Of a stretch of DNA of 24,956 nucleotides, positions 3,693-24,956 are shown piece by piece. The position numbers and the translations under genes were made by a program. Within the stretch, counting starts at the first letter, position 1, and the number at the start of each line of letters is the position of its first letter. The stretch comes from a virus (taxonomy: Duplodnaviria > Heunggongvirae > Uroviricota > Caudoviricetes). The notes under the pieces were generated by a model that searched no databases, was not told the origin of the DNA, and worked only from the letters and a program-made list of their open reading frames with translations. Location of the stretch: the IMG/VR virus record IMGVR_UViG_2923292180_000001. The stretch is one strand, 5' to 3'.

Positions 3693-3711
3693 AAAACTCT
3701 CGAGGGCAAAG

Positions 3712-7637: not shown

Positions 7638-7651
7638 AATACGGCTGTCAC

Positions 7652-7984
7652 TTAGACGTAAATATCAATGGTGCCAGCGGTATTTGTATCGTCTTTTTTC
7701 TCTTCTTTTTTATCAGGCTGAACTGTCGCGTCTTCATTCTTTTTCTCTGCCTGCTGCCTTAACAACTGCTCCAGTTGAGCCCAGAGGCTTTCAATTTGCT
7801 TCTGTACCAATGCAGCCATTTCTTTTTTCTGCTGTGTCGTCATCCCCTCTTCCGATGAGATTTTCCCAAGCTTTTCAGTCAGCACCTGAATTTGTCTTGT
7901 GATTTTGGCTATTTCTGATGTTCCTTCCGGGGCGGAGTTGTTTGAAATAACGGTTGAGGTATTTCCCTGAATTGTGACAGACAT
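7652..7984 (-). CDS. flxA: FlxA (sigma-28-dependent prophage protein)
   Basis: 110-aa product MSVTIQGNTSTVISNNSAPEG...TIDIYV recognised as FlxA; a canonical sigma-28 promoter lies immediately upstream. Confidence 0.9.
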   Translation of the reverse strand: MSVTIQGNTSTVISNNSAPEGTSEIAKITRQIQVLTEKLGKISSEEGMTTQQKKEMAALVQKQIESLWAQLEQLLRQQAEKKNEDATVQPDKKEEKKDDTNTAGTIDIYV

Positions 7985-8006
7985 AGATTTCTCCTTTTAA
8001 AAAAGC

Positions 8007-8033
8007 ACTATCGGCATGCACAAAAAAATCTTT
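8007..8033 (-). promoter_or_regulatory. Sigma-28 (FliA) promoter of flxA
   Basis: Minus-strand sequence TAAAGATT-N11-GCCGATAG (-35 at 8026-8033, -10 at 8007-8014) matches the FliA consensus TAAAGTTT-N11-GCCGATAA with correct spacing; sits 23-49 bp upstream of the flxA ATG. Confidence 0.75.
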
Positions 8034-8186
8034 AATCGTATTTCTTGTGTCATTAATTGTTTGATGTTCAGATTGTTTTCCTCGCGGGCTGGCGCGCCTC
8101 AGAAAGTAAAGCTTGTTGACAGGGGTAAACGTTCGGCAATAATTTTCTGCCGCATGCGGGTGTTGCATAAAACGTGTTACGTTCCT

Positions 8187-8492
8187 TTATCGACAGGTCA
8201 GGTCACCGCTCACCCGCCGACGAGAAAGCAACACTGACATGCTAAAGCAAAAAATAGATGAATAAGTTGAGTTGTGCATATGTAGCCTGACCGTCACAAA
8301 GTATATGGTGTCTGTACCAGTAAGATGATGGCCGGACTCTTTAAAAACGAGCTGACCTGCACAATACAGGATGGACTTAGCAATGGCTGCTCCTGGCACA
8401 AAGCGGACAGTGATCACCGTTCTTACGACTACTTTCTGACTTCCTTCGTGACTTGCCCTAAGCATGTTGTAGTGCGATACTTGTAATGACAT
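8187..8492 (-). CDS. ydfV: Hypothetical prophage protein YdfV-like (101 aa)
   Basis: ORF of the length and position expected between flxA and relB in Qin; its start codon overlaps the relB operator, so the true start and expression are uncertain. Confidence 0.45.
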   Translation of the reverse strand: MSLQVSHYNMLRASHEGSQKVVVRTVITVRFVPGAAIAKSILYCAGQLVFKESGHHLTGTDTIYFVTVRLHMHNSTYSSIFCFSMSVLLSRRRVSGDLTCR

Positions 8493-8504
8493 TTGTAATT
8501 ACAA
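8481..8504 (+). promoter_or_regulatory. relBE operator (relO-like inverted hexad repeats)
   Basis: TTGTAATgacaTTTGTAATTACAA immediately upstream of the relB SD and ATG (8517); the TTGTAAT/ATTACAA repeats are those of the RelB-RelE operator. Confidence 0.6.
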
Positions 8505-8516
8505 GAGGTGTAAGAC

Positions 8517-8756
8517 ATGGGTAGCATTAACCTGCGTATTGACGATGAACTTAAAGCGCGTTCTTACGCCGCGCTTGAAAAAATGGGTGTAACTCCTTCT
8601 GAAGCGCTTCGTCTCATGCTCGAGTATATCGCTGACAATGAACGCTTGCCGTTCAAACAGACACTCCTGAGTGATGAAGATGCTGAACTTGTGGAGATAG
8701 TGAAAGAACGGCTTCGTAATCCTAAGCCAGTACGTGTGACGCTGGATGAACTCTGA
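8517..8756 (+). CDS. relB: RelB antitoxin
   Basis: 79-aa product MGSINLRIDDELKARSYAALEKMGVTPSEALRLMLEYIADNERLPF... recognised as RelB; stop overlaps relE start (TGATG). Confidence 0.95.
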   Translation: MGSINLRIDDELKARSYAALEKMGVTPSEALRLMLEYIADNERLPFKQTLLSDEDAELVEIVKERLRNPKPVRVTLDEL

Positions 8757-9043
8757 TGGCGTATTTTCTGGATTTTGACGAGCGGGCACTAAAGGAATGG
8801 CGAAAGCTGGGCTCGACGGTACGTGAACAGTTGAAAAAGAAGCTGGTTGAAGTACTTGAGTCACCCCGGATTGAAGCAAACAAGCTCCGTGGTATGCCTG
8901 ATTGTTACAAGATTAAGCTCCGGTCTTCAGGCTATCGCCTTGTATACCAGGTTATAGACGAGAAAGTTGTCGTTTTCGTGATTTCTGTTGGGAAAAGAGA
9001 ACGCTCGGAAGTATATAGCGAGGCGGTCAAACGCATTCTCTGA
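8756..9043 (+). CDS. relE: RelE mRNA interferase toxin
   Basis: 95-aa product MAYFLDFDERALKEWRKLGSTVREQLKKKLVEVLESPRIEANKLRG... recognised as RelE; translationally coupled to relB. Confidence 0.95.
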   Translation: MAYFLDFDERALKEWRKLGSTVREQLKKKLVEVLESPRIEANKLRGMPDCYKIKLRSSGYRLVYQVIDEKVVVFVISVGKRERSEVYSEAVKRIL

Positions 9044-9114
9044 ACCAAAGCATGACATCTCTGTTTCGCACCGAAGGTGACACTTCTGCTTTGCGTTGAC
9101 AGGAGAAGCAGGCT

Positions 9115-9270
9115 ATGAAGCAGCAAAAGGCGATGTTAATCGCCCTGATCGTCATCTGTTTAACCGTCATAGTGACGGCACTGGTAACGAGGAAAGACCT
9201 CTGCGAGGTACGAATCCGAACCGGCCAGACGGAGGTCGCTGTCTTCACAGCTTACGAACCTGAGGAGTAA
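9115..9270 (+). CDS. hokD: Hok-family membrane toxin HokD (RelF); below the ORF-track size cutoff
   Basis: 51-aa ORF MKQQKAMLIALIVICLTVIVTALVTRKDLCEVRIRTGQTEVAVFTAYEPEE: single transmembrane segment plus conserved Hok C-terminus; immediately downstream of relE. Confidence 0.85.
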   Translation: MKQQKAMLIALIVICLTVIVTALVTRKDLCEVRIRTGQTEVAVFTAYEPEE

Positions 9271-9339
9271 GAGACCCGGCGGGGGAGAAATCCCTCGCCA
9301 CCTCTGATGTGGCAGGCATCCTCAACGCACCCGCACTTA

Positions 9340-9370
9340 ACCCGCTTCGGCGGGTTTTTGTTTTTATTTT
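9340..9370 (+). terminator. Rho-independent terminator of the relB-relE-hokD operon
   Basis: AACCCGC-TTCG-GCGGGTT hairpin followed by TTTTGTTTTTATTTT, about 70 bp after the hokD stop. Confidence 0.7.
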
Positions 9371-9486
9371 CAACGCGTTTGAAGTTCTGGACGGTGCCGG
9401 AATAGAATCAAAAATACTTAAGTAGCGCGCAGGGATAAGAGGGATGGTCCCTTAAAGGGGAGAGCTAATTATCCGGAAGGATTCTG

Positions 9487-9738
9487 ATGATGAACATCGA
9501 AGAACTGCGTAAAATTTTTTGTGAAGATGGCCTCTATGCTGTGTGCGTTGAAAATGGAAATCTTGTTAGTCATTACCGCATTATGTGTTTGCGAAAGAAT
9601 GGGGCTGCGTTAATTAATTTTGTGGATGCTCGGGTCACGGACGGATTTATCTTGCGCGAAGGTGAGTTTGTCACTTCATTACAGGCATTGAAAGAGATCG
9701 GAATAAAAGCTGGCTTTTCTGCTTTTTCAGGAGAATAA
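9487..9738 (+). CDS. rem: Rem (prophage protein, 83 aa)
   Basis: Product MMNIEELRKIFCEDGLYAVCVENGNLVSHYRIMCLRKNGAALINFVD... matches Rem from memory in length and position between hokD and ydfU. Confidence 0.75.
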   Translation: MMNIEELRKIFCEDGLYAVCVENGNLVSHYRIMCLRKNGAALINFVDARVTDGFILREGEFVTSLQALKEIGIKAGFSAFSGE

Positions 9739-9804
9739 ACTCATCTACAATCTTGCGCGGGGCTGAACTCCCGCTGAGTAACACCGTGCCACCGGAGAAA
9801 ACCG

Positions 9805-10083
9805 ATGGCACGCAACGCAAAATATTACAATTCTGATAATTCGCCCGTTCTTGCCTGCACGCACGGGCGGTATTCTCACGCATTCAAGTCTGAATGGTTC
9901 CAGCACCCTCCATGCACTGCAGAACAGGCCGAATGGCTGATTCATTCTTACCGCAGGCGCGGGTTCGAGGTTAAGAAAGCTCTCAGTCTCGACTATCGGC
10001 ACTGGATAATCTCTGTCAGGCTGCCTTATTCCGAACGCCCACCACGTGCGTCCCGCACTTTCCAGCAACGGATCTGGAGGTAA
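9805..10083 (+). CDS. Hypothetical 92-aa protein between rem and ydfU
   Basis: ATG 9805 with upstream GGAGAAAA; its TAA stop (10081-10083) lies inside the SD (GGAGGT) of ydfU, 1 nt before the ydfU GTG start. No recognisable domain. Confidence 0.4.
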   Translation: MARNAKYYNSDNSPVLACTHGRYSHAFKSEWFQHPPCTAEQAEWLIHSYRRRGFEVKKALSLDYRHWIISVRLPYSERPPRASRTFQQRIWR

Positions 10084-10084
10084 C

Positions 10085-11134
10085 GTGCGGGTATTACTTA
10101 GACCTGTTCTGGTGCCTGAGCTTGGGCTGGTGGTCCTTAAGCCGGGCCGTGAATCCATACAGATATTTCATAATCCTCGAGTGCTGGTGGAACCGGAACC
10201 AAAAAGCATGCGTAATCTGCCATCCGGAGTCGTTCCTGCCGTTCGCCAGCCGCTGGCGGAAGACAAAACATTGCTGCCGTTTTTTAGTAACGAACGGGTG
10301 ATTCGTGCTGCTGGCGGCGTTGGCGCATTGTCCGACTGGCTATTACGTCATGTTACATCCTGCCAGTGGCCTAATGGCGATTACCATCACACTGAAACAG
10401 TCATTCACCGTTATGGTACCGGCGCAATGGTGTTGTGCTGGCACTGCGACAACCAACTGCGTGACCAGACATCGGAATCACTGGAGCTGCTTGCTCAACA
10501 AAATCTGACAGCATGGGTGATTGACGTCATCCGTCACGCAATAAGCGGTACGCAGGAGCGGGAATTATCTTTGGCTGAATTATCCTGGTGGGCGGTCTGC
10601 AATCAGGTGGTGGATGCACTACCTGAGGCTGTATCGCGTCGTTCGCTGGGATTACCAGCGGAAAAAATCTGCTCGGTGTACCGCGAAAGCGACATCGTAC
10701 CGGGAGAGCAGACCGCCACCAGCATATTGAAACAACGCACAAAAAATCTTGCACCGTTGCCTTACGCCCACCAGCAACAAAAATCACCACAGGAAAAGAC
10801 GGTGGTAAGCATCACCGTTGATCCAGAGTCTCCGGAATCTTTCATGAAGCTGCCTAAACGTCGCCGCTGGGTTAAGGAGAAATACACACGTTGGGTTAAG
10901 ACACAGCCGTGTGCTTGCTGCGGTATGCCAGCCGACGATCCGCATCATCTGATTGGTCACGGGCAGGGCGGAATGGGAACAAAAGCACATGATCTCTTTG
11001 TGTTGCCTTTGTGCAGAAAGCATCACAACGAGCTGCATACGGATACAGTGGCATTTGAAGATAAGTATGGCTCCCAACTGGAGCTGATATTTCGTTTTAT
11101 CGATCGCGCGCTGGCAATTGGCGTACTGGCGTAA
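10085..11134 (+). CDS. ydfU: YdfU (DUF968-family protein with C-terminal Cys/His cluster)
   Basis: GTG 10085 preceded by GGAGGT gives 349 aa (the ORF-track frame extends to GTG 10046); C-terminus has CACCGMPADDPHHLIGHGQGGMGTKAHDLFVLPLCRKHHNELH. Confidence 0.8.
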   Translation: MRVLLRPVLVPELGLVVLKPGRESIQIFHNPRVLVEPEPKSMRNLPSGVVPAVRQPLAEDKTLLPFFSNERVIRAAGGVGALSDWLLRHVTSCQWPNGDYHHTETVIHRYGTGAMVLCWHCDNQLRDQTSESLELLAQQNLTAWVIDVIRHAISGTQERELSLAELSWWAVCNQVVDALPEAVSRRSLGLPAEKICSVYRESDIVPGEQTATSILKQRTKNLAPLPYAHQQQKSPQEKTVVSITVDPESPESFMKLPKRRRWVKEKYTRWVKTQPCACCGMPADDPHHLIGHGQGGMGTKAHDLFVLPLCRKHHNELHTDTVAFEDKYGSQLELIFRFIDRALAIGVLA

Positions 11135-11147
11135 GTGGAGAACGAGC

Positions 11148-11900
11148 ATGAACCTTGAAGCCTTACCAAAATATTACTCCCCAAAATCTCCAAAATTGAG
11201 CGATGACGCTCCAGCGACAGGCACCGGTTGTTTAACAATTACGGATGTAATGGCAGCGCAGGGGATGGTGCAGTCGAAAGCACCACTTGGGTTGGCCTTA
11301 TTTCTGGCAAAAGTTGGTGTTCAGGACCCTCAGTTTGCGATTGAAGGCCTGCTAAATTACGCGATGGCACTGGATAACCCGACATTGAACAAATTGAGTG
11401 AAGAAATCCGGTTACAGATTATTCCTTACCTCGTGAGTTTTGCCTTTGCTGATTACTCCAGGTCTGCGGCAAGTAAGGCTCGCTGTGAGCATTGTTCAGG
11501 TACGGGATTTTATAATGTATTGCGCGAAGTGGTGAAACACTACAGACGCGGGGAATCTGTAATCAAGGAAGAATGGGTGAAGGAACTATGTCAGCATTGC
11601 CATGGTAAGGGCGAAGCCAGCACAGCGTGCAGAGGGTGTAAGGGTAAAGGGATTGTTCTGGATGAAAAAAGAACCCGGTTTCATGGCGTACCGGTATATA
11701 AGATTTGTGGGCGTTGTAATGGAAACCGGTTTAGTCGTTTACCGACCACGCTGGCACGACGTCATGTCCAGAAGCTGGTACCAGACCTGACCGATTATCA
11801 GTGGTATAAGGGGTATGCGGACGTCATTGGTAAACTGGTAACAAAGTGCTGGCAGGAAGAAGCATACGCGGAAGCGCAATTGAGGAAGGTGACGAGATAA
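11148..11900 (+). CDS. quuQ: Late-gene antitermination protein Q
   Basis: 250 aa from ATG 11148 (ORF frame opens at 11118); Cys/His-rich zinc-finger region (CEHCSGTG..CQHCHGKG..CRGCKGKG..CGRCNG); lies upstream of a PR'-like promoter and terminator. Confidence 0.85.
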   Translation: MNLEALPKYYSPKSPKLSDDAPATGTGCLTITDVMAAQGMVQSKAPLGLALFLAKVGVQDPQFAIEGLLNYAMALDNPTLNKLSEEIRLQIIPYLVSFAFADYSRSAASKARCEHCSGTGFYNVLREVVKHYRRGESVIKEEWVKELCQHCHGKGEASTACRGCKGKGIVLDEKRTRFHGVPVYKICGRCNGNRFSRLPTTLARRHVQKLVPDLTDYQWYKGYADVIGKLVTKCWQEEAYAEAQLRKVTR

Positions 11901-11930
11901 ATGATTTTTGCTGAAGATGGCGACATGATG

Positions 11931-11960
11931 TTTGCATTTTTCAAAAAATATGGATAAAAT
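11931..11960 (+). promoter_or_regulatory. Late promoter PR'-like element with downstream pause/qut-like CAACGATGGG
   Basis: TTTGCA (-35, 11931-11936), 18-bp spacer, TAAAAT (-10, 11955-11960), followed by TTTTCAACGATGGG, which closely parallels the lambda PR' initial transcribed region (...TGACTCAACGATGGG). Confidence 0.55.
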
Positions 11961-12005
11961 TTTTTCAACGATGGGCTTTGTATACCCGACGTTAAGAAAA
12001 AGTAG

Positions 12006-12034
12006 AAAACCCGCTGATGAGCGGGTTTTGTGCT
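12006..12034 (+). terminator. tR'-like rho-independent terminator downstream of the late promoter
   Basis: AAAACCCGCT-gatg-AGCGGGTTTTGTGC: 6-bp GC-rich stem with a T-run, about 50 nt downstream of the putative PR' start. Confidence 0.65.
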
Positions 12035-12321
12035 TTAAATGGGGCAATGGTAATGTTGAATCTCATCCCGGGACTCATGTCTGTTAACTTATTATTTAGC
12101 TGGTGACTTGGTTATTTGCCTGATGTTTAAAATGTTTTCTTCCAGTACAATGTCCCTAAACACAATGAGTCTGCTTATTATATTATTAGCAGAGCTATTA
12201 CGGCCAAAGTACAGCATAAGCTTTTAAAGCCAATCAACCAGTCATCAAGACAGACGGGGTTATTCATAAAAACTCTCCATGTGTGATCCGATGGGGCCTG
12301 AAATTAAAGCTTTAATATAGC

Positions 12322-12534
12322 TCATGAAAGGTAAACATTGGCAGCTGAAGGGCCACGCAGACCATTTATCCGGCAAAATTCCACGCGTAATCCGGTGGTA
12401 ATTTCTTCTGCATCGCGGAGATTGAGCGCTGAAACATGAAGCTGGACATCGATACGACCATCGGATGGGGTGATAAGACCCTTGCCGCTTTTGCCGTCAA
12501 AGGTTTTGACAATTCCTGTCATTTTACGGGACAA
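12322..12534 (-). CDS. cspF: Cold-shock-like protein CspF
   Basis: 70-aa product [70 protein letters not shown]; divergent from cspB. Confidence 0.9.
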
Positions 12535-12684
12535 AAAAATTCCTTAATACTGATAACTTGGCGCACTATACACACGTTCCTGAAGAAAGCTATAGTTTTT
12601 TGATGGGGTTGAAGATGGCTGGATGTCTAAAATAAACATTGCTTCATATGTTCAACTATGCGTTAATGATTGCGTCGGTTTGAA

Positions 12685-12834
12685 GAACAGACGATATACG
12701 AAGTAGTTTACTAAAGCAGTTCTCATTTCAGGTGTTATTCACTTATTCCTTCTTTGAGTCTCTCCAATTAAGTACGAAGTCGTTTCTGTTATGCAAACCA
12801 TTTATGCCGAAAGGCTCAAGTTAAGGAATGTAGA
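12685..12834 (+). promoter_or_regulatory. cspB 5' untranslated leader with cold-box-like element and cspA-type upstream box
   Basis: AACAGACGATATACGAAGTAGTTTACTAAAGCAG resembles the cspA cold box (TGACGTACAGACCATTAAAGCAG); GCCGAAAGGC lies just upstream of the SD (AAGGAATG) before the cspB ATG, as in cspA. Recalled from memory, not aligned. Confidence 0.4.
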
Positions 12835-13050
12835 ATGTCAAATAAAATGACTGGTTTAGTAAAATGGTTTAACGCTGATAAAGGTTTCGGCTTTATTTCT
12901 CCTGTTGATGGTAGTAAAGATGTGTTTGTGCATTTTTCTGCGATTCAGAATGATAATTATCGAACCTTATTTGAAGGTCAAAAGGTTACCTTCTCTATAG
13001 AGAGTGGTGCTAAAGGTCCTGCAGCAGCAAATGTCATCATTACTGATTAA
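12835..13050 (+). CDS. cspB: Cold-shock protein CspB
   Basis: 71-aa product [71 protein letters not shown] with RNP1/RNP2 motifs. Confidence 0.95.
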
Positions 13051-13331
13051 AATTCATCGCTCGTCTGTATACGATAACGAAGAAGGCTGATGCCTGAGTA
13101 GAGATACGGACAGAGTAGTGAATATTGGATCTCTTTAATAAAAAGTAAGGAGGTCCAATACATGAAACAATGGCTAGCATATTTGGCAAAATCTTAATCA
13201 GGAAAAGTATGCTAACCATTGTGGTGAAGTGCAGGTTTGCTGCATGAATAGTTTTACAGCAGAAGCTAACTGCTGGCATGGCAAAACAAAGTGCGTAAGT
13301 GGATGACTCCCACAAAAAGCACCACAATCTC

Positions 13332-13357
13332 AAACCCGCTCAGGCGGGTTTTTTATT
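13332..13357 (+). terminator. Hairpin terminator between cspB region and the convergent small zinc-ribbon gene
   Basis: AAACCCGC-TCAG-GCGGGTTTTTTATT; strong on the plus strand, weaker but possible for the minus-strand gene ending at 13414. Confidence 0.5.
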
Positions 13358-13413
13358 ATCTGCTTTAAATATATTATTAAAATATAAAAAATACTTGTTA
13401 CTAATAAAATCAA

Positions 13414-13584
13414 TCAGGCTACAGCTTTAAGATTTGTCTGGAATACTTTGTTGCAATGAGGGCAGATCAAAAGGGCACCTTTTTGTACTCTTGAAAAACT
13501 GTGTTCTGACTCTTGGGTGCAGTTTGGGCAGGAACATTTAACGAGATAATTACGGCGTGATTTTGAGTTTTTACGTTCTGACAT
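13414..13584 (-). CDS. Small zinc-ribbon protein (56 aa, two CxxC pairs); possibly YnfU-like
   Basis: ATG at 13584 with upstream AGGAAAAG; product MSERKNSKSRRNYLVKCSCPNCTQESEHSFSRVQKGALLICPHCNKVFQTNLKAVA (CPNC...CPHC). Gene name is a guess from memory. Confidence 0.5.
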   Translation of the reverse strand: MSERKNSKSRRNYLVKCSCPNCTQESEHSFSRVQKGALLICPHCNKVFQTNLKAVA

Positions 13585-13803
13585 AGGCTTTTCCTGTATA
13601 AATGGCCGTATACAGTACACTAAATATGAAAACATTTCTCGTATTATTATTTTATATATGACTTTCTTTCAAAATAATTACCCACATTTTTAATGTGTAT
13701 GTTTTTTTAGCGCCGTTGAGAACAACGTGTGCTGTCAAAACTCCCCCGTAGACTCCGATCTTTTCAAACATATTGCACCATCCGTGTACATCGGGGTGAG
13801 GAT

Positions 13804-14019
13804 ATGAAATCAATGGATAAGTTAACAACAGGTGTTGCCTATGGCACATCGGCGGGTAATGCTGGTTTCTGGGCATTGCAGTTACTCGATAAAGTAACTC
13901 CGTCACAGTGGGCTGCAATCGGTGTGCTGGGTAGCCTGGTTTTTGGCCTGCTGACGTATCTGACAAATCTTTATTTCAAGATTAAAGAAGACAGGCGTAA
14001 GGCTGCGAGAGGAGAGTAA
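13804..14019 (+). CDS. essQ: Class II holin (phage 21 S21 pinholin type) with dual-start motif
   Basis: 71 aa from ATG 13804 ([10 protein letters not shown]..., second Met at codon 4 as in holin/antiholin dual starts); two transmembrane segments and charged C-terminus ([13 protein letters not shown]). Confidence 0.85.
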
Positions 14020-14023
14020 TCCA

Positions 14024-14331
14024 ATGACTCAAGACTATGAACTGGTTGTGAAAGGAGTCCGTAATTTTGAGAATAAAGTTACGGTAACTGTAGCCTTACA
14101 GGACAAAGAACGCTTTGACGGTGAAATTTTTGACCTGGATGTCGCCATGGACCGTGTTGAAGGAGCTGCGCTGGAGTTTTATGAGGCAGCAGCCAGAAGG
14201 AGCGTCCGGCAAGTCTTCCTGGAAGTAGCAGAAAAATTGTCAGAAAAAGTTGAGTCTTATCTGCAGCATCAGTACTCCTTTAAGATTGAAAATCCTGCCA
14301 ATAAGCACGAGCGTCCTCATCATAAATATCT

Positions 14332-14335
<4 letters not shown>
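14024..14335 (+). CDS. ydfR: YdfR (DUF1327 prophage protein, 103 aa)
   Basis: Sits between holin and endolysin; stop overlaps the endolysin start (ATGA). Confidence 0.75.
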
Positions 14336-15359
<1,024 letters not shown>

Positions 15360-15721
15360 GGTAATATTAAATCGGAACATTTACATCGCGGAATGTAAAA
15401 TTTAAATAAAAAGGACTCTTCCATGAGCCAAAATTCCTGAAATCTTAAGGGTAAGATAAAAGGTCTTAATCAGAATGACACGTTTTATTAATAAATAAAG
15501 CCATTCTTTCATTGCTGTGTTTTTCTTTACAAAAGTAATCCTTGCTATGGGTGGTTAATCATGCGTTAATGGTGTTCTGGTTTGTTACAAATTTATCTGA
15601 AGCAGTCATTGTTATAATTTTATTATTTGTACCTCTTGAGATTTCCTTGTTGGTTTTTCTCTCTGATATTTTTTTTCGGACCATTCTGCCCAAGGGCTAA
15701 TTTCTTCAAAAGGTAATAATT

Positions 15722-15934
15722 ATGTCTAACAAAATGACTGGTTTAGTGAAATGGTTTAACCCTGAAAAAGGTTTTGGTTTCATCACGCCGAAAGATGGCA
15801 GCAAAGATGTGTTTGTCCATTTCTCAGCAATTCAGAGCAACGATTTCAAAACATTAACTGAGAATCAGGAAGTTGAATTTGGTATTGAGAACGGACCTAA
15901 AGGTCCTGCCGCTGTTCATGTAGTGGCGCTTTGA
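15722..15934 (+). CDS. cspI: Cold-shock protein CspI
   Basis: 70-aa product [70 protein letters not shown]; long AT-rich leader upstream. Confidence 0.95.
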
Positions 15935-16138
15935 GGTAGACAATATTACAAACCATATTCACTTTAGATGCCCGTGTTGTCATGGTTCCCAGTATAGAAC
16001 ATCATCTTTTGATGTTTCTGACATGAATCCTTTCGGGGCAAAATGTATCTTTTGTAAATCAATGATGATTACATTTGATAATATTTCACAATACTTAAAT
16101 GCCAGCCGTCTGTCGTTGGATTTAAAAAAGTGAAAATG

Positions 16139-16162
16139 AAGGCTCCTTCGGGAGCTTTTTTG
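16139..16162 (+). terminator. Rho-independent terminator downstream of the cspI region
   Basis: AAGGCTCC-TTCG-GGAGCTTTTTTGC; placed 6 bp after the stop (16131-16133) of a zinc-ribbon reading frame. Confidence 0.55.
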
Positions 16163-16205
16163 CTTGGTGTCTATTCGATGGATACTCACATACTACGGTA
16201 ACATC

Positions 16206-16436
16206 ATGAAAAAAATCATAGTTTTTTTTAACTCTGAACCAGCAGTGGTAGTGCCAGCGATGACTGGAGTTAACACCATCATGCGTGAATATCCAAATGG
16301 CGAAAAAACACACCTTACTGTAATGGCCGCAGGGTTTCCATCTCTGACCGGAGATCATAAAGTCATTTATGTAGCCGCGGATCGACATGTTACTTCAGAA
16401 GAAATTCTGGAAGCAGCAATAAGGCTCTTGAGTTGA
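16206..16436 (+). CDS. Hypothetical 76-aa protein
   Basis: ATG 16206 (ORF-track frame opens at 16164); product MKKIIVFFNSEPAVVVPAMTGVNTIMREYPNGEKTHLTVMAAGFPSLTGDHKVIYVAADRHVTSEEILEAAIRLLS; no recognisable domain. Confidence 0.4.
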   Translation: MKKIIVFFNSEPAVVVPAMTGVNTIMREYPNGEKTHLTVMAAGFPSLTGDHKVIYVAADRHVTSEEILEAAIRLLS

Positions 16437-16579
16437 TTTGATGCTATTGCATTGATAATTCAGGAAAATTCTCTTTGTCTGTTTGTGTAAAATTTAGACT
16501 ATCGTATGTTGATTATTGCGATGTTTCATCTTATCTTTTACACGTTTGCTGATCCTACCCACGTAATATGGACACAGGC

Positions 16580-17446
16580 CTAAGCGAGGTTCTTGTTTTC
16601 AAATTGTTCCGGACTGAGGCCGCCACACCAACTGTGCCGCCGCCACCGATTGTAATCACATTCGATATAATTAAACACCGTTGCCCGCATTATTTCCCGG
16701 CTGATAAAGTGTTCTCCATGGATACATTCCACTTTCAGCGAATGAAAGAAGCTTTCCACGCAGGCATTATCGTAGCAGCAACCTTTTGCGCTCATACTTC
16801 CACGCAGATTATGCCGCTTCAGTTGCGCCTGATAATCTGCTGAACAGTACTGGCCTCCACGGTCCGTGTGAACGATAACGTTCCGGGGCCTCTTACGCCG
16901 CCACAGCGCCATCTGCAGGGCATCGCAGGCCAGTTGCGCCGTCATGCGTGGCGACATTGACCAGCCAATAACGGCACGTGACCACAGGTCAATGACCACT
17001 GCCAGATACAGCCAGCCTTCATCTGTACGTAAGTACGTGATGTCTCCTGCCCACTTCTGGTTCGGGCCACTGGCGTAAAAATCCTGCTCCAACAGATTTT
17101 CTGACACAGGCAGGCCGTGTGCGCGGTAGCTGACCGGGCTGAACTTCCGGGAGGCCTTTGCCCTCAGTCCCTGACGGCGCAGGCTTGCCGCCACGGTTTT
17201 TACGTTAAAGGGGTAACCCTGAGCACGCAGTTCATCCGTCAGGCGTGGGGCACCGTAACGCTGTTTTGACCGGGTAAAAGCCGCGAGGACAACGCTGTCG
17301 CAGTGTTGGCGGAACTGCTGACGCGTGCTTATCCTTGTCCGCCGCTGACACCACGTATACCAGCCGCTGCGGGCCACCCGGAGCACGCGGCACATTGCTT
17401 TGATGCTGAACTCAGCCTGATGTTTTTCAATAAAGACATACTTCAT
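16580..17446 (-). CDS. insF: IS3 transposase OrfB (InsF), DDE catalytic domain
   Basis: 288-aa product [38 protein letters not shown]... recognised as IS3 InsF; overlaps the orfA stop (ATGA), as in the frameshift-fused IS3 arrangement. Confidence 0.9.
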
Positions 17447-17751
17447 TTCAGGCGCTTCGCGAAGTATGTCGCGGCCTTTTGGAGGATAGCCAGCTCTTCA
17501 TCCCGTTCTGCCAGCTGGCGTTTGAGACGTGCAATCTCGGTAGACATCTCCAGTTCACGTTCAGAAGACGTCTGCTGATTTTGCTGTTTACTGCGCCAGT
17601 TGTAGAGTTGTGATTCATACAGGCTGAGTTCACGGGCTGCGGCAGTAACACCGATGCGTTCAGCAAGCTTCAGGGCTTCACTGCGAAATTCAGGCGAATG
17701 CTGTTTACGGGGTTTTTTACTGGTTGATACTGTTTTTGTCATGTGAGTCAC
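17443..17751 (-). CDS. insE: IS3 transposase OrfA (InsE), helix-turn-helix / leucine zipper
   Basis: 102-aa [58 protein letters not shown]... recognised as IS3 InsE. Confidence 0.9.
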
Positions 17752-17868
17752 CTCTGACTGAGAGTTTACTCACTTAGCCGCGTGTCCACTATTGCTGGGT
17801 AAGATCATGCACCATATAATCGACTTACTGTGTAACTGGAAAGTCATAACAGACTAAAAGAGGAAATG

Positions 17869-18042
17869 ATGAATATTGAAAACTTAAAAACAAAAGCAGA
17901 AGCAGATATTTCTGAATATATAACAAAAAAAATTATTGAACTTAAGAAAAAGACCGGGAAAGAAGTTACCAGTATTCAGTTTACCGCACGGGAAAAAATG
18001 ACGGGTCTTGAAAGCTATGATGTCAAGATTAATTTAATCTGA
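17869..18042 (+). CDS. gnsB: GnsB-like small protein (57 aa); below the ORF-track size cutoff
   Basis: ATG 17869 with upstream AAGAGGAAA; product MNIENLKTKAEADISEYITKKIIELKKKTGKEVTSIQFTAREKMTGLESYDVKINLI matches the GnsA/GnsB family pattern. Confidence 0.8.
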   Translation: MNIENLKTKAEADISEYITKKIIELKKKTGKEVTSIQFTAREKMTGLESYDVKINLI

Positions 18043-18159
18043 TGTATTCAATAATAAAATTTATCCATAAACCTCGTTTTTACGGGGTTTTGTTATATTT
18101 GAATGGTTCCGAATATCTAAATCACAATTGTTGATGGTTTTTATTAAACCAATGCAGTC

Positions 18160-18193
18160 CGGCTCAGGAGTGAGAGAAGCCGGACGTTATGGT
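18160..18193 (-). terminator. Terminator downstream of ydfO
   Basis: GTCCGGCT...AGCCGGAC hairpin immediately after the ydfO stop (18194), followed on the minus strand by an A/T-rich tract. Confidence 0.45.
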
Positions 18194-18619
18194 TTAGCGT
18201 GGTAAGATCTGTGTAGTTTTCTGGATGCTTTCAGTAAATAGTAATGAATTATCAAAGGTATAGTAATATCTTTTTTGTTCGTGGATATTTGTAACCCACC
18301 GAAAAACTCCTGCTTTAGCAAGGTTTCTTCTGTATTCCTGAAATGTGATCTCTCTGGATTTCAGCTTATTAGAGGTCGTTTCTATAAGATGCCTATCCTT
18401 TGAAAATTTGACAGACACAATGTTTTTTAGGCCCTTTAATAACACTGTATTATCATTTTTTAATACAATATGAACATTCTCTGTGGCTAAATAGTAAATG
18501 TAATGTGAGACATTGTGACGTTTTAGCTCAGAATAAAACCATTGATAGTTTAAATCGTTTCGAACTTTATCAAATATTTGTTTAAAAATGACTACCTGAT
18601 CCATAGATAAACCTTCCAT
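18194..18619 (-). CDS. ydfO: YdfO (DUF1398 prophage protein, 141 aa)
   Basis: Product [54 protein letters not shown]... in the position expected between gnsB and the packaging remnant. Confidence 0.75.
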
Positions 18620-18661
18620 GTGATATGAGGGGGCGTAGTCTGCACGATTATCTAAATTGCT

Positions 18662-18895
18662 TCAATCTGGTCTGACCTGTTTTCTGAGCAATTCAGTAAT
18701 GTCACTCTTTTCTTTGTTTGCTTCAGAAGAAACTCTTTTTTCTGAGCACAGTCTCCGGCGGCAGGCTTCAATGACCCAGGCTGAGAAATTCCCGGACCCT
18801 TTTTGCTCAAGAGCGATGTTAATTTGTTCAATCATTTGGTTAGGAAAGCGGATGTTGCGGGTTGTTGTTCTGCGGGTTCTGTTCTTCGTTGACAT
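18662..18895 (-). CDS. ynfO: Small ribbon-helix-helix-like prophage protein (77 aa), YnfO-like
   Basis: Basic N-terminus then IRFPNQMIEQINIALEQKG, resembling an Arc/CopG-type RHH fold; position matches ynfO of Qin. Name from memory. Confidence 0.5.
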   Translation of the reverse strand: MSTKNRTRRTTTRNIRFPNQMIEQINIALEQKGSGNFSAWVIEACRRRLCSEKRVSSEANKEKSDITELLRKQVRPD

Positions 18896-19029
18896 GAGGT
18901 TGCCCCGTATTCAGTGTCGCTGATTTGTATTGTCTGAAGTTGTTTTTACGTTAAGTTGATGCAGATCAATTAATACGATACCTGCGTCATAATTGATTAT
19001 TTGACGTGGTTTGATGGCCTCCACGCACG

Positions 19030-19283
19030 TTGTGATATGTAGATGATAATCATTATCACTTTACGGGTCCTTTCCGGTGATCCGACAGGTTACGGGGCGG
19101 CGACCTCGCGGGTTTTCGCTATTTATGAAAATTTTCCGGTTTAAGGTGTTTCCGTTCTTCTTCGTCGTAACTTAATGTTTTTATTTAAAATACCCCCTGA
19201 AAAGAAAGGAAACGACAGGTGCTGAAAGCGGGCTTTTTGGCCTTTGTCGTTTCCTTTCTCTGTTTTTGTCCGTGGAATGAACA
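19030..19283 (+). other. Lambda-type cos site (cosQ-cosN-cosB); cosN 12-nt cohesive-end sequence at 19095-19106
   Basis: ...TGATATGTAGATGATAATCATTATCACTTTACGGGTCCTTTCCGGTGATCCGACAGGTTACG | GGGCGGCGACCT CGCGGGTTTTCGCTATTTATGAAAATTTTCCGGTTTAAGG... is essentially the joined right and left ends of phage lambda; the nu1 ATG follows 189 bp after cosN. Confidence 0.85.
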
Positions 19284-19541
19284 ATGGAAGTCAACAAAAA
19301 GCAGCTGGCTGACATTTTCGGTGCGAGTATCCGTACCATTCAGAACTGGCAGGAACAGGGAATGCCCGTTCTGCGAGGCGGTGGCAAGGGTAATGAGGTG
19401 CTTTATGATTCTGCCGCCGTCATAAAATGGTATGCCGAAAGGGATGCTGAAATTGAGAACGAAAAGCTGCGCCGGGAAGTTGAAGAACTGCGGCAGGCCA
19501 GCGAGACAGATCTCCAGCCACCCGCGCTACGGCATGGGTAA
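19284..19541 (+). pseudogene. nohA: Terminase small subunit Nu1 N-terminal fragment (homology ends near 19520)
   Basis: MEVNKKQLADIFGASIRTIQNWQEQGMPVLRGGGKGNEVLYDSAAVIKWYAERDAEIENEKLRREVEELRQASE is the lambda Nu1 N-terminus; after about codon 79 the sequence departs from nu1 and continues as a J fragment in another frame. Confidence 0.85.
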
Positions 19542-20799
19542 ACGTCTTGGTGCGGCAGATGTGGATAAATGGGCGCTGTATGTCATCGGCCAGTGTTGCG
19601 ACCAGTCGGTGCCGGACGGTTTTGGCGGCACGGAGCCGCGCATCACCTGTAATGCCTGGCTGACCACACAGCGTAAGGCGTGGGATGTTCTCAGTGATTT
19701 CTGCTCGGCGATGCGCTGTATGCCGGTATGGAACGGGCAGACGCTGACGTTCGTGCAGGACCGACCATCAGATAAGGTGTGGACCTATAACCGCAGTAAT
19801 GTGGTGATGCCGGATGATGGCGCGCCGTTCCGCTACAGCTTCAGCGCCCTGAAGGACCGCCATAATGACGTTGAGGTGAACTGGATTGACCCGGATAACG
19901 GCTGGGAGACGGCGACAGAGCTTGTGGAGGACACGCAGGCCATTGCCCGTTACGGTCGTAACGTCACGAAGATGGATGCCTTTGGCTGTACCAGGCGGGG
20001 GCAGGCGCACCGAGCCGGGCTGTGGCTGATTAAAACGGAACTGCTGGAAACGCAGACCGTGGACTTCAGCGTGGGTGCCGAAGGGCTTCGCCATGTACCA
20101 GGTGATGTCATTGAAATCTGTGATGATGACTATGCGGGGATCAGCATCGGCGGGCGCGTGCTGGCGGTGAACAGCCAGACGCGGACACTGACGCTCGACC
20201 GTGAAATCACGCTGCCATCCTCCGGCACCACGCTGATAAGCCTGGTTGACGGGCAGGGTAATCCGGTGAGCGTGGAGGTCCAGTCCGTCACCGACGGCGT
20301 GAAGGTGAAAGTGAGCCGGGTTCCTGACGGCGTTGCCGAGTACAGCGTGTGGGGGCTGAAGCTGCCGACGCTGCGTCAGCGCCTGTTCCGCTGTGTGAGT
20401 ATCCGTGAGAACGATGACGGTACGTATGCCATCACTGCCGTGCAGCATGTACCGGAGAAAGAAGCCATCGTGGATAACGGGGCGCACTTTGACGGTGACC
20501 AGAGCGGCACGGTGAATGGTGTCACGCCGCCAGCAGTTCAGCACCTGACCGCAGAAGTCACCGCAGACAGCGGGGAATACCAGGTGCTGGCGCGCTGGGA
20601 CACGCCGAAGGTGGTGAAGGGGGTGAGCTTTATGCTTCGCCTGACCGTGGCAGCGGACGACGGCAGTGAGCGGTTGGTCAGCACGGCCCGGACGACGGAA
20701 ACCACATATCGCTTCACGCAGCTGGCGCTGGGAAATTACAGGCTGACAGTCCGGGCGGTAAATGCATGGGGACAGCCGGTGCACATACCCATTCGATGA
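19521..20799 (+). pseudogene. Internal fragment of tail tip/host-specificity protein J (about 420 codons), no native start
   Basis: The 455-aa ORF (19432..20799) reads ..PRYGMGKRLGAADVDKWALYVIGQCCDQSVPDGFGGTEPRITCNAW...[12 protein letters not shown], collinear with the central part of lambda J; it begins exactly where nu1 homology stops and ends at a second junction with stf. Confidence 0.85.
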
Positions 20800-21074
20800 C
20801 ATTTGTTTCAGGTGGTTCCAGTGGTGCTCCGGGAAGTGGATCACCTGATTATTCTAAATACAGTGTTAACACTTCTTCTGCAGGCGCTCATACGCACTCT
20901 GTATCGGGTACTGCTGCAAGCGCAGGTGCACACGCATATACTGTCGGTATTGGTGCTCATACGCACTCCGTTGCGATTGGTTCACATGGACATACCATCA
21001 CCGTTAACGCTGCTGGTAACGCGGAAAACACCGTCAAAAACATCGCATTTAACTATATTGTGAGGCTTGCGTAA
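20766..21074 (+). CDS. stfQ: Side tail fibre (Stf) C-terminal fragment, 102 aa, with HxH repeat motifs
   Basis: ..[63 protein letters not shown] matches the lambda Stf C-terminus; the ATG at 20766 lies in J-derived sequence; stop overlaps the tfa start (TAATG). Confidence 0.75.
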
Positions 21075-21649
21075 TGGCATTCAGAATGAGTGAACAACCA
21101 CGGACCATAAAAATTTATAATCTGCTGGCCGGAACTAATGAATTTATTGGTGAAGGTGACGCATATATTCCGCCTCATACAGGTCTGCCAGCAAACAGTA
21201 CCGATATTGCACCGCCAGATATTCCGGCAGGCTTCGTGGCTGTTTTCAACAGTGATGAGGCATCGTGGCATCTCGTTGAAGATCATCGGGGTAAAACGGT
21301 TTATGACGTGGCTTCCGGCGACGCGTTATTTATTTCTGAACTCGGTCCGTTACCGGAAAATGTTACCTGGTTATCGCCGGGAGGGGAATATCAGAAGTGG
21401 AACGGCACAGCCTGGGTGAAGGATACGGAAGCAGAAAAACTGTTCCGGATCCGGGAGGCGGAAGAAACAAAAAACAGCCTGATGCAGATAGCCAGTGAGC
21501 ATATAGCGCCGCTTCAGGATGCTGTGGATCTGGAGATCGCAACGGAGGAAGAAACCTTGTTGCTGGAAGCCTGGAAAAAGTATCGGGTGTTGCTGAACCG
21601 TGTTGATACATCAACTGCACCGGATATTGAATGGCCAGCACTGCCGTAG
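21074..21649 (+). CDS. tfaQ: Tail fibre assembly protein Tfa
   Basis: 191-aa product [71 protein letters not shown]... is nearly identical to lambda Tfa from memory. Confidence 0.9.
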
Positions 21650-21746
21650 GGTAAAACATATAAATTCTATAATTAGATGTATCTCTCCATTTACGGCAAG
21701 GAAGGGGGCTTGGAAGACGTAAAGCATCTCACACCGAGATTATTTT

Positions 21747-22337
21747 TTATATGTCAGGTGTCTGAAGTTTTGCTTTGGCTCTTAAAATGGTTTGCCGCGA
21801 GGTTTTGAATTCCCGGGCAATGGCACTTATACTTACACCTGACTTAATTCGTTCGAATACCACCTGTTTCTGTTCTTCATTTAACACAGGTGGTCGACCA
21901 AAACGTTTCCCTGCGCCGCGGGCTCTTACTATCCCGGAATGAGTGCGTTCAAGTAAAAGGTCTCGTTCAAATTCAGCGACTGCTGAAATTACGTGCATCA
22001 TCATTTTTCCTGTTGGACTGGTCAGGTCAATGCCCCCCAATGCTAAGCAATGCACTCTGATACCTGTTTCGGTCAGTTGTTCCACTGTTTTCCTGATATC
22101 CATTGCATTACAACCAAGGCGATCCAGTTTTGTCACAATCAATTGATCACCACATTTCAGGCGAGCAAGCAACCGGTTAAAACCAGGACGCTCACTGGTT
22201 GCTGCTGAGCCGCTAATGTGTTCTTCGATTATTTGCTGAGGTTTGATTTTAAAACCTGCACTTTCGATTTCCCGGCGTTGATTTTCGGTGGTCTGATCCA
22301 GCGTTGATATCCGACAGTAAGCAAAAATTCGAGACAT
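21747..22337 (-). CDS. pinQ: Serine DNA invertase of the Pin/Gin/Hin family
   Basis: 196-aa product [29 protein letters not shown]... has the catalytic Ser motif (YCRIST) and a C-terminal helix-turn-helix; convergent with tfaQ. Confidence 0.9.
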
Positions 22338-22653
22338 AGTGAGACTCTATACGAAATTGGTGTTCATATCATAATGCATCTCAGAAAATAATTTTGATTA
22401 TTTTTGTGCATATTTGTATGTACACGTTCGAAAATAAACGAATGCGTATGCAACCCCGTAACTTTGGTGAGACCCAAAATCGATTTTGTGAAAAATGGCT
22501 TTAACTCGGTTTGTTTTTCGAGTTCCGGGCGGACTCAAGGAAGAAGAATAGTGTTGCGTGTTATTTTAACCAGATTTCAAGTTGTTTGGTCGTGGAAAAG
22601 TGGAGCAAAATGTTGTTAAAGTGGAAAAATGATAAAAAAGTAAGTTTATTATA

Positions 22654-22887
22654 TTACATTTTACCATTTAAATTTTGGTTGTCTTTAAGAACTGATATCG
22701 CTGTTTGTAATAATTCTTTGTTATCCAGCCATGATTTTTTCTTTATGTTTCCTTCAATGTAATCAAGCAATGTTCTGGTATTGATAGGTCTTCCCTGTTT
22801 TGCTACTTCCACTACAGCATCCCCTAGGATAATTCTGACTTCAGGAAGCTGCGCAGGGAACCACTTTAGGGTGTCTTTTGATTTCAT
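22654..22887 (-). CDS. ydfK: YdfK/YnaE-family cold-shock-induced protein (77 aa)
   Basis: From the internal Met of the 88-aa ORF: MKSKDTLKWFPAQLPEVRIILGDAVVEVAKQGRPINTRTLLDYIEGNIKKK...; long AT-rich upstream leader. Confidence 0.8.
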   Translation of the reverse strand: MKSKDTLKWFPAQLPEVRIILGDAVVEVAKQGRPINTRTLLDYIEGNIKKKSWLDNKELLQTAISVLKDNQNLNGKM

Positions 22888-23672
22888 GAATATATTCCTT
22901 AAAATATTATTGATTTTCATTGCGATATTGTATGTCTGATTCAGGATATGTTGACTTATACATCGGTTTTGTCTGGGTTATTGGATATGCCAATCCCTAA
23001 TTTTATTAGAGCATGACTAAAAATGCTGAATATGATAAGGAGCGAAGTGATTATCAGTATGCTGTTCATATAGCCTCGAATTAGTAATGTGTTATATATG
23101 ATATAGTTGACAATTTTTATCCTGGGTGTTCTTAAAGTTCGTAGATAAACATTGTCGTTTCAGGTATACAGGAATGCTAACAGATGGCGGCAAAAATCAG
23201 GCGGTTTATGGCGCAAGCTGAAGTGGCAACTGCAAACTATCTTATGCAGAGACTCTACACGGATTGGGTTTAAAAGTATACATAGATAACAGTTTTTATC
23301 TGAAGAAGAAAAATATCAAGGTGATATAGCCTATATGCCTTTGATGTGGAGGAATGAATGTGATGGGAGTGATGTATCTGAATAGTTGAAAAACCGCAGA
23401 CACGCCTTATGCAAGAACGTGCTGCGGTTGGCTGGTAAATTTTTCGATAGTGCGAGTATTGAATGATTTCCAGCCGTTATTGATTTTACGCGTAACTCCA
23501 TGAAAAAACTACTTATCTGTTGAGGAGTTTTTTTGGGGCATATATGGGACAGAAATGGGCCCCAGATAGACACTGAGATCGAACTTAGGATGCTTTTTAA
23601 AAAATGCAACTATCTGAAAAAACCTAGAAAACGCCAAGGAAACCACAGGATGGGAAAAAACACCTGTGAATT

Positions 23673-24956
23673 ATGGATTTCCAGTTATATTCGCTCGGCG
23701 CAGCGTTAGTGTTTCATGAAATATTTTTTCCTGAATCATCAACGGCAATGGCGTTAATTCTGGCAATGGGAACCTATGGTGCAGGTTATGTGGCGCGTAT
23801 TGTCGGAGCATTTATTTTCGGCAAAATGGGCGACAGAATAGGGCGTAAAAAAGTGCTCTTTATTACCATCACCATGATGGGGATCTGTACCACCTTAATT
23901 GGTGTGTTACCGACCTATGCACAGATTGGTGTTTTTGCACCCATCTTGCTGGTGACGTTGCGTATTATTCAGGGGTTGGGTGCAGGTGCGGAAATTTCCG
24001 GTGCCGGTACGATGCTGGCGGAATATGCGCCAAAAGGTAAGCGCGGAATTATCTCCTCATTTGTGGCTATGGGAACTAACTGCGGAACCTTGAGCGCAAC
24101 GGCAATCTGGGCCTTTATGTTCTTCATTCTCAGTAAAGAGGAACTGCTGGCGTGGGGATGGCGTATACCGTTCCTGGCGAGTGTTGTCGTGATGGTCTTT
24201 GCTATCTGGTTGCGTATGAATCTGAAAGAAAGCCCGGTCTTTGAGAAGGTTAACGACAGTAACCAACCGACAGCAAAACCTGCACCTGCTGGTAGCATGT
24301 TCCAGAGCAAATCCTTCTGGCTGGCAACAGGGCTGCGTTTTGGTCAGGCGGGTAACTCCGGGTTAATTCAGACTTTCCTTGCAGGCTATTTAGTGCAGAC
24401 GTTATTGTTTAACAAAGCAATTCCAACAGATGCATTGATGATCAGTTCGATTCTCGGCTTTATGACCATTCCGTTCCTTGGTTGGTTATCCGATAAAATT
24501 GGTCGCCGGATCCCGTATATTATTATGAATACCTCCGCGATTGTGCTGGCATGGCCAATGCTTTCTATCATTGTAGATAAAAGCTATGCCCCGAGCACCA
24601 TTATGGTTGCACTGATTGTGATTCATAACTGTGCAGTGCTGGGATTATTTGCTCTGGAAAACATTACCATGGCAGAAATGTTCGGCTGTAAAAACCGCTT
24701 TACCCGGATGGCTATTTCTAAAGAAATTGGTGGTCTTATCGCTTCCGGTTTTGGTCCTATCCTGGCGGGTATTTTCTGCACCATGACGGAATCCTGGTAT
24801 CCGATCGCCATTATGATCATGGCATATTCAGTGATTGGTTTAATCTCTGCGCTGAAAATGCCAGAGGTGAAAGACCGTGATTTAAGTGCGCTGGAAGACG
24901 CTGCGGAAGATCAACCGCGTGTTGTAAGAGCTGCGCAACCTTCCAGAAGTCTGTAA
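23673..24956 (+). CDS. ydfJ: MFS metabolite:H+ symporter-family transporter, N-terminally truncated at the prophage junction
   Basis: 427-aa ORF with multiple transmembrane segments and MFS motifs (GKMGDRIGRKK, ..LSDKIGRR..); an in-frame TGA sits 2 codons upstream of the first ATG and the reading frame starts partway into the conserved N-terminal helix, consistent with interruption by the prophage. Confidence 0.85.
   Translation: MDFQLYSLGAALVFHEIFFPESSTAMALILAMGTYGAGYVARIVGAFIFGKMGDRIGRKKVLFITITMMGICTTLIGVLPTYAQIGVFAPILLVTLRIIQGLGAGAEISGAGTMLAEYAPKGKRGIISSFVAMGTNCGTLSATAIWAFMFFILSKEELLAWGWRIPFLASVVVMVFAIWLRMNLKESPVFEKVNDSNQPTAKPAPAGSMFQSKSFWLATGLRFGQAGNSGLIQTFLAGYLVQTLLFNKAIPTDALMISSILGFMTIPFLGWLSDKIGRRIPYIIMNTSAIVLAWPMLSIIVDKSYAPSTIMVALIVIHNCAVLGLFALENITMAEMFGCKNRFTRMAISKEIGGLIASGFGPILAGIFCTMTESWYPIAIMIMAYSVIGLISALKMPEVKDRDLSALEDAAEDQPRVVRAAQPSRSL

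Follow-up and report, generated by a model that had tools for sequence, protein, structure and literature searches.

In phage lambda, the packaging site cos contains cosQ, a conserved 7-bp site, and termination of packaging requires a second, downstream cosQ-cosN (PMC4669245). In cosB, R3, an IHF site (I1), an inverted R2 and R1 lie at a fixed distance from cosN. Within R3, bp 56, 58 and 59 matter for recognition by TerS (PMC4669245). The E. coli prophage DLP12 carries cos-containing lambda homology (PMC3945230, PMC545071). Its cos has been proposed to be cut during lambda infection (De Paepe et al.), and the junctions of lambda x DLP12 recombinants cluster beside cos (PMC3945230). Cos-type PICIs, such as EcCICFT073, are chromosomal, lack capsid genes and carry a lambda-type cos on which the terminase of a helper could in principle act, and the locus described here resembles them in these respects (PMC6739421, PMC9026076).

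Identity of the locus and its cos site

The stretch of DNA that we analyzed (24,956 nucleotides, hereafter the window) can be assigned with high confidence to Qin, a cryptic prophage of E. coli, present here as a more eroded allele that is specific to some strains; the cos-to-pinQ region is the late-gene end of this prophage. It matches the chromosomes of PK6, JNQH497 and other strains with 99.9-100% identity, also across the J-fragment region in PK6. In PK6, rspAB and a truncated ydfJ border the near-identical segment, which thus occupies the Qin integration interval (rspB/ynfP to truncated ydfJ). RefSeq annotates in this region the Qin landmark genes relBE, hokD, rem, ydfU, ydfT (Q), cspF/B/I, essD, ydfR, rrrQ, rzpQ, gnsB, ydfO, ynfO, tfaQ, pinQ and ydfK; this annotation and the identity with K-12 recover the characteristic Qin gene set, including nohA. 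The element has a size of ~23.7 kb.

Qin of strain K-12, the nearest known counterpart and the same element in another decay allele, lies at the same chromosomal site (rspB/truncated ydfJ) and shares its cos and its landmark genes with the window. Its ends are colinear with window positions 1-1179 and 20883-24956, and colinearity extends over 7031-16549 (99.96% identity) and 17808-19520; the right end, tfaQ-pinQ-ydfK, shares 96-98.5% identity with the window. An IS3-family element is inserted at window 16550-17807, unlike in K-12. In the early region, int and xis look intact in the strain type of the window, whereas the dicA/dicB/dicF block is missing. The late regions differ as well: K-12 Qin contains a full-length nohA fused at lambda position 719 to a 320-codon stfQ and has no J fragment, whereas in the window nu1 ends at codon 79 and is followed by 1.26 kb of J and by just ~98 codons of stf.

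A BLAST comparison of window positions 18900-21800 with phage lambda (NC_001416) returned five colinear blocks, whose E-values are all effectively 0, so that chance matches are excluded:

Window 18900-19094: lambda 48308-48502, 100% identity, lambda right end
Window 19095-19520: lambda 1-427, 98.1% identity, cos and start of nu1
Window 19518-20779: lambda 16347-17608, 92.6% identity, within J
Window 20895-20956: lambda 21767-21828, 75.8% identity, weak stf repeat match
Window 20925-21639: lambda 21824-22538, 93.7% identity, stf 3' end and tfa

The features of the cos-to-pinQ region are as follows (window coordinates):

19065-19071, plus strand: cosQ heptamer GGGTCCT (packaging termination signal), within a stretch 100% identical to lambda; we take it to correspond to lambda 48473-48479
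19085-19106, plus strand: cosN nicking site, identical to lambda; the 12-nt cohesive end GGGCGGCGACCT is 19095-19106
19143-19262, plus strand: cosB, with the R3 core at 19147-19153 (TGTTTCC), the I1 region, R2 at 19203-19217 (inverted) and R1 at 19245-19259
19284-19541, plus strand: nu1' (nohA remnant), 79 Nu1 codons (237 nt), then 6 out-of-frame codons and a stop
19518-19520, plus strand: junction 1, nu1 (lambda 427) to J (lambda 16347), microhomology CCA
19521-20779, plus strand: 'J', internal tail-tip fragment, about residues 282-701 of 1132, without a start codon
20773-20779, plus strand: junction 2, J (lambda 17608) to the stf C-terminal region, microhomology CAGCCGG
20780-21074, plus strand: 'stf, last ~98 codons of the side tail fiber, with GxHxH repeats
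21074-21649, plus strand: tfaQ, intact tail-fiber assembly gene, 191 aa, 9 aa differences from K-12 TfaQ
21747-22337, minus strand: pinQ, intact serine invertase, 196 aa, 3 aa differences from K-12 PinQ

The 79 Nu1 codons differ from lambda Nu1 only by A75T. The predicted product has 85 aa in total and holds the entire solved DNA-binding domain (PDB ID 1J9I, residues 1-68; 6HN7), and Pfam aligns it with positions 1-81 of 164 of the Phage_Nu1 profile. Among phage records, the J piece is closest to mEp460 J (98.3% identity) and contains the Pfam domains Phage-tail_3 and Ig_J. The sequence at about 20776-20924 has no lambda match yet encodes a tail-fiber C terminus: from position 20773 on it shares 97.7% identity with stfR of a lambdoid element in strain SZQ1, and the stf stump, which contains a Pfam Phage_fiber repeat, is 77.6% identical to a T-even phage fiber from query position 7 on. 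TfaQ shows a full-length Caudo_TAP domain, as does K-12 TfaQ, and PinQ is a resolvase-type invertase by Pfam. The nu1, J and stf stumps are pseudogenes, and RefSeq/PGAP labels all three as incomplete pseudogenes in PK6 (terminase small subunit, TipJ/host specificity protein J, tail fiber protein).

By sequence, the window contains a lambda-type cos with cosN and its cohesive end, cosQ, and a cosB with R3-I1-R2-R1. No mismatch to lambda occurs in the 195 bp preceding the nick, cosN is present once in the window, and cosQ, cosN and the I2 spacer leading to cosB are the same as in lambda. In cosB, R3, I1, R2 and R1 follow one another in the lambda order and orientation and with conserved spacing, which is unchanged up to R2; R2 and R1 are perfect 15-nt inverted copies of each other. 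Five substitutions and a 1-nt deletion distinguish it from lambda (at lambda 53, 73, 102, 137/138 and 151). One of these, C53T, changes the first base of the R3 core (CGTTTCC to TGTTTCC), while R3 bp 56, 58 and 59 are those of lambda. All of the changes also occur in viable phages: apart from one extra A at lambda 134, the same haplotype is present in plaque-forming PhiR70_1, for which E. coli C is the recorded host, and in phiSTEC1575-Stx2k. It is thus a natural variant of working cos sites. We conclude that cos is intact by sequence and could probably be nicked by a terminase of lambda specificity.

Two deletion junctions

We defined junction 1 by three-way alignment of the window with its parental counterparts in FDAARGOS_1337 and KGu016, and junction 2 by alignment with mEp460 J and SZQ1 stfR. 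At junction 1, lambda 428-16346 is lost (15,919 bp). The loss at junction 2 amounts to about 4.1 kb in lambda coordinates and to about 5.1 kb when compared with an SZQ1-type stf, which brings the total missing at both junctions to about 20-21 kb. At this site strain KGu016 carries a Qin prophage whose neighboring Qin genes are the same and which has preserved an entire late region (nohA, A, W, B, C, D, E, FI, FII, Z, U, V, G, T, H, M, L, K, I, J, lom) that is colinear with lambda 1-18002 at 96.7% identity. Its nu1 and J cross the junction 1 positions without a break, and in lambda and its phage relatives the junction positions likewise fall within uninterrupted nu1 and J. Both joints of the window carry short microhomologies, and the parental sequences are uninterrupted in KGu016, FDAARGOS_1337, mEp460 and SZQ1. 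These shared bases are the sequence signature of illegitimate, microhomology-mediated deletion. A repeat search for a Pin invertase site at junction 2 yielded no convincing inverted repeat flanking tfaQ.

Could the joints instead be natural mosaic boundaries of a functional phage, or chimeras created during assembly? The former would fit the mosaic nature of lambdoid phages and the fact that J and stf have their best matches in different elements (mEp460 and SZQ1). However, none of 50,697 phage records spans either junction, whether the query was the whole region or the stf stump. The J-piece match ends at both junctions in all 265 matching phage records, and none of the 265 covers ≥80% of the region query. 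In addition, the fragments lack starts and ends and are out of frame, and the intact relative KGu016 has uninterrupted genes at both sites. Chimeras are hard to reconcile with the recurrence of the same junctions in 24 and 90 independently assembled complete genomes. We thus rejected mosaic borders as well as an assembly artifact, and consider either origin scarcely credible.

These results bear on an earlier, sequence-only reading of the window, which had described cos and the first 79 nu1 codons as lambda-like, followed by a switch to J at about 19520/19521 and by another at about 20776 to the last ~100 codons of stf and an intact tfa. Comparison with NC_001416 gives the same coordinates (junction 2 at 20773-20779, ~98 stf codons), and its view of cos as intact agrees with the lambda-identical cosQ and cosN. 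It had also named the outcome that would speak against its deletions, namely that the junctions are mosaic borders in intact relatives; with nu1 and J uninterrupted there, with microhomologies at both joints (CCA, CAGCCGG), and on comparison with KGu016, lambda and the 265 phage records, both switches are true deletion junctions. Its estimate of roughly 17 kb missing has to be raised to about 20-21 kb (15.9 kb plus 4.1-5.1 kb).

Decay alleles of the cos-tfaQ interval

We counted each junction with an 80-mer spanning it in 5426 complete E. coli genomes. Junction 1 is intact in 24 of them, and a 25th genome scored with 480 extra bases between the halves of the 80-mer; junction 2 is found in 90. 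The cos-tfaQ interval of Qin exists in at least six decay alleles other than that of the window, at least seven in all (lambda coordinates):

K-12: nu1 719 joined to stfQ, a joint present in up to 365 genomes
P13-6: A 956 joined to L 13434-13575, joined to J 16534, with junction 2
MS124-1: nu1 ~697-703 joined to J 17302, with junction 2
FDAARGOS_1337: nu1 699 joined to J 16138, with junction 2
NCTC9040: as FDAARGOS_1337, with a 1.29-kb A-W-B island at the nu1/J joint
GF31: cos 149 joined to B 3297-3467, joined to stf

The A-W-B island of NCTC9040 sits exactly at the joint, with TA on both sides, and occurs in one genome only. Several end points are reused by sister alleles, at nu1 ~697 (three alleles), in the portal gene at ~3464-3467 (two) and in J at ~16136-9 (two). 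This reuse is in part explained by the nu1/J joint that DLP12 and Qin have in common and probably exchanged. The nu1 699/J 16138 joint is present in 66 genomes, including the DLP12 prophages of E. coli B/BL21 and E. coli C, and the tract around the joint shared by DLP12 and Qin contains 3 mismatches in 500 bp, compared with 3-6% divergence in the flanks. The low divergence of this tract suggests recombination between prophages.

The FDAARGOS_1337 allele shares junction 2 with the window, and its flanks are 99.9% identical on both sides; the sole difference is a 477-bp segment that holds the nu1 699/J 16138 joint. This joint lies inside the interval lost at junction 1. Since the two alleles otherwise agree, junction 1 is most simply explained as a further loss from such a sister allele. 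We propose that an ancestral lambda-like late region (cos-nu1-A...J-lom-stf-tfa) was eroded by illegitimate, microhomology-mediated deletions. Early events may have been the deletion from nu1 699 to J 16138 and that from J 17608 to stf, the latter now seen in 90 genomes. A later, nested loss of 477 bp (nu1 428 to J 16346) would have produced junction 1, now in 24 genomes. The window retains cos, the first 237 nt of nu1, 1.26 kb of mid-J, ~0.3 kb from the stf 3' end, and tfaQ and pinQ, both intact.

Judged by the order of events that the sequences imply, three or more deletion steps are thus probably a better account than two. Exactly two direct deletions from a full-length prophage, of 15.9 kb (nu1 428 to J 16346) and about 4-5 kb (J 17609 to stf), would account for the only two junctions visible in the window. 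The full-length Qin of KGu016 makes a one-step loss of 15.9 kb physically possible, and junction 2 is found in P13-6 alongside more complete left parts. Against this stand the sister allele of FDAARGOS_1337, with its near-identical flanks, its junction 2 and an older joint within the 477 bp by which alone it differs, and the wide distribution of that joint, which 66 genomes carry and which is also seen in DLP12 of the B and C strains. A small nested loss is thus more parsimonious. We therefore regard two direct deletions as possible but rather unlikely, and the two clean steps of the sequence-only reading are probably wrong, as the older nu1 699/J 16138 joint inside the junction 1 interval calls for at least three. 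The erosion was not a simple linear series: in P13-6, A and L fragments persist alongside junction 2, and this allele indicates a reticulate history, with recombination between alleles or prophages.

Helper packaging and comparison with known systems

Both elements for the initiation of packaging, cosN and cosB, are in place, and packaging is predicted to proceed rightward, from nu1' through tfaQ and ydfJ towards the mar region. A scan allowing up to 3 mismatches revealed no second cos in the window or in ~57 kb downstream in PK6. In the PK6 element, from int to the truncated ydfJ, no repressor or replication module is annotated. An element of ~23.7 kb is smaller than a packageable lambda monomer, and monomeric circles are not packaged. 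With a lone cos, this size and no annotated replication module, infectious transducing particles are not expected without additional events. Productive packaging of the remnant by a helper thus appears unlikely from the sequence, and the realistic outcome of a helper infection would be a terminase-made break at cos rather than transfer of the remnant. The proposal that the remnant could serve as substrate for the terminase of a helper lambdoid phage is therefore plausible for cleavage at cos and initiation; as a route to packaging it is weakened by the missing second cos within ~57 kb, the size of the element and its annotation.

We regard cos as a passively retained relic, not as a working part. 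The Qin cos may work in lambda-qin phages, a point that we do not use as evidence. Our search of the open-access literature for direct tests of Qin cos function or for lambda-qin hybrids returned none, only a citation of Espion et al. 1983. Every Qin-locus allele that we examined keeps cosQ-cosN, and all except GF31 keep the 5' end of nu1; in GF31, R1 is lost, and nu1 and part of cosB are gone. The universal retention of cosQ-cosN, among the few alleles examined, could hint at selection. Cos and nu1' might then be kept because they are functional, either as a site from which helper-initiated packaging mobilizes Qin or the adjacent chromosome, in a PICI-like or lateral-transduction-like manner, or through Nu1' acting as a decoy against packaging by incoming phages. 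This would fit with a sequence-intact cos whose cosB haplotype is that of viable phages, with the complete DNA-binding domain in Nu1', with intact int and xis in the strain, with the occurrence of the same nu1/J joint at two different prophage loci, and with the cutting of the DLP12 cos proposed by De Paepe et al. (PMC3945230). But termination needs a downstream cosQ-cosN (PMC4669245), the element has no annotated Rpp-like gene, GF31 demonstrates that retention is not universal, and the shared joint lies in a tract of low divergence, as is typical when resident prophages recombine. We find such retention for function very improbable. A decoy or interference role of Nu1' is a small possibility, as judged from its sequence. 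There is only a very slim chance that cos, perhaps with the Nu1 DNA-binding stump, is under selection because cutting by a helper mobilizes Qin or its right chromosomal flank or disturbs packaging of the helper, and that the joint shared by Qin and DLP12 reflects helper-assisted spread of a capsid-less, cos-bearing lambda derivative and not an exchange between resident prophages.

The element is not a cos-type PICI, as judged by its replication module, size and gene content: it measures ~23.7 kb compared with ~10-15 kb, its genes are those of a decayed lambdoid prophage, and the PK6 annotation contains neither a replication module nor an Rpp-type protein that redirects TerS. What we describe is ordinary prophage decay in a known element and not a new system, a further decay allele of a cryptic prophage known from textbooks, present in 24 complete genomes and with its three pseudogenes already flagged by routine annotation. 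Its value is modest and lies in a coordinate-level example of stepwise erosion by microhomology-mediated deletion. The polymorphic cos-tfaQ interval of Qin, with its seven or more alleles, could provide a natural series in which to study how deletions arise and how prophages recombine with each other.

The DLP12 prophages of E. coli B and C offer the closest parallel at another locus. As in the window, a lambda-type cos is followed by a truncated nu1 fused straight to J, and their nu1 699/J 16138 joint is identical to that of the sister Qin allele. DLP12 differs in its integration site and left context (rrrD-rzpD-iss-ylcI), and in E. coli C its J reaches the natural end, whereas in the window the joint itself would have been removed by a further deletion. 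If a helper terminase cuts the Qin cos in vivo, the site would become a chromosomal break and a recombination hot spot during lambdoid infection, as proposed for DLP12.

Recurring end-points and joints in decayed lambdoid prophages

Comparison of the sister decay alleles of the Qin cos-tfaQ interval (L003, L008, L009 and L011) revealed that deletion end-points are reused within 1-5 nt and that their partners differ. The end-point at nu1 ~697 is joined to A 2177, J 16138 or J 17302 (lambda coordinates), and that in portal at ~3464-3467 to J 16137 or stf ~21452. This recurrence exceeds the coincidence expected from independent random deletions; our explanation for it is partial. The joint between nu1 699 and J 16138 (GAACTGATACCCGAACACGG) is found in 66 genomes in all and is identical in Qin and DLP12, two different cryptic prophage loci:

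L008 2800-2815: nu1 699/J 16138 joint, Qin copy, strain FDAARGOS_1337
L020 and L021 5030-5050: nu1 699/J 16138 joint, DLP12 copies, BL21 and E. coli C

Because divergence between Qin and DLP12 drops to 0.6% around this joint, compared with 3-6% in the flanks, the alignments suggest that it has passed between resident prophages through recombination.

Exactly at the nu1/J joint, strain NCTC9040 carries an island of lambda sequence with TA on each side:

L003 3790-5083: 1.29-kb island made up of the 3' part of lambda A, W and the 5' part of B

Its B/J junction occurs in NCTC9040 alone (1 of 5426 genomes), and the island may represent a templated insertion, a decay intermediate or an assembly problem.

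A comparable fusion is present in strain LR-27:

L010 2690-3789: lambdoid prophage remnant, cos then cut nu1 fused to J

Here nu1, with cos in front, ends at lambda 293 and is joined to J 17195. The remnant is an unrelated one (it is Rha-type and its lysis genes differ), and it has its fusion independently, so fusions of cos and truncated nu1 to J arise repeatedly.

Range of prophages at the Qin locus

L018 20001-41713 and L019: Qin prophage of strain KGu016

The KGu016 Qin retains the full complement of lambda-like head and tail genes (96.7% identity to lambda across 18 kb). Its tail-fibre module is different, and it also carries a group II intron and a KwaB-like gene. Prophages at the Qin locus therefore range from near-complete to minimal between strains.

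The window Qin compared with PK6 and K-12

Window 16550-17807: IS3-family insertion, 1258 bp, between ynfN and gnsB
Window 20-1586 and 1180-7030: left-end regions departing from K-12 Qin

The IS3-family element has two minus-strand ORFs (HTH_Tnp_1 and rve transposase) and TGATC(C/T)TACCCA terminal inverted repeats, and 3 bp of its target (TGC) are duplicated. Neither K-12 nor PK6, whose Qin is otherwise near-identical, carries this insertion. Near ydfK/ynfT, a 96-bp stretch (window 23394-23489) matches part of the lambda b region (24162-24256) at 84% identity and is an additional small lambda-like relic past pinQ.

At the left end, the window Qin has an intact excisionase and an intact 431-aa integrase; in K-12, by contrast, intQ is a pseudogene disrupted by IS2. 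Where K-12 has the dicC-dicA-dicF-dicB block, the window Qin contains a different set of genes, most of them pseudogenised. These comprise genes for an exonuclease, a DUF977 protein and a methyltransferase, along with a remnant of ISNCY.
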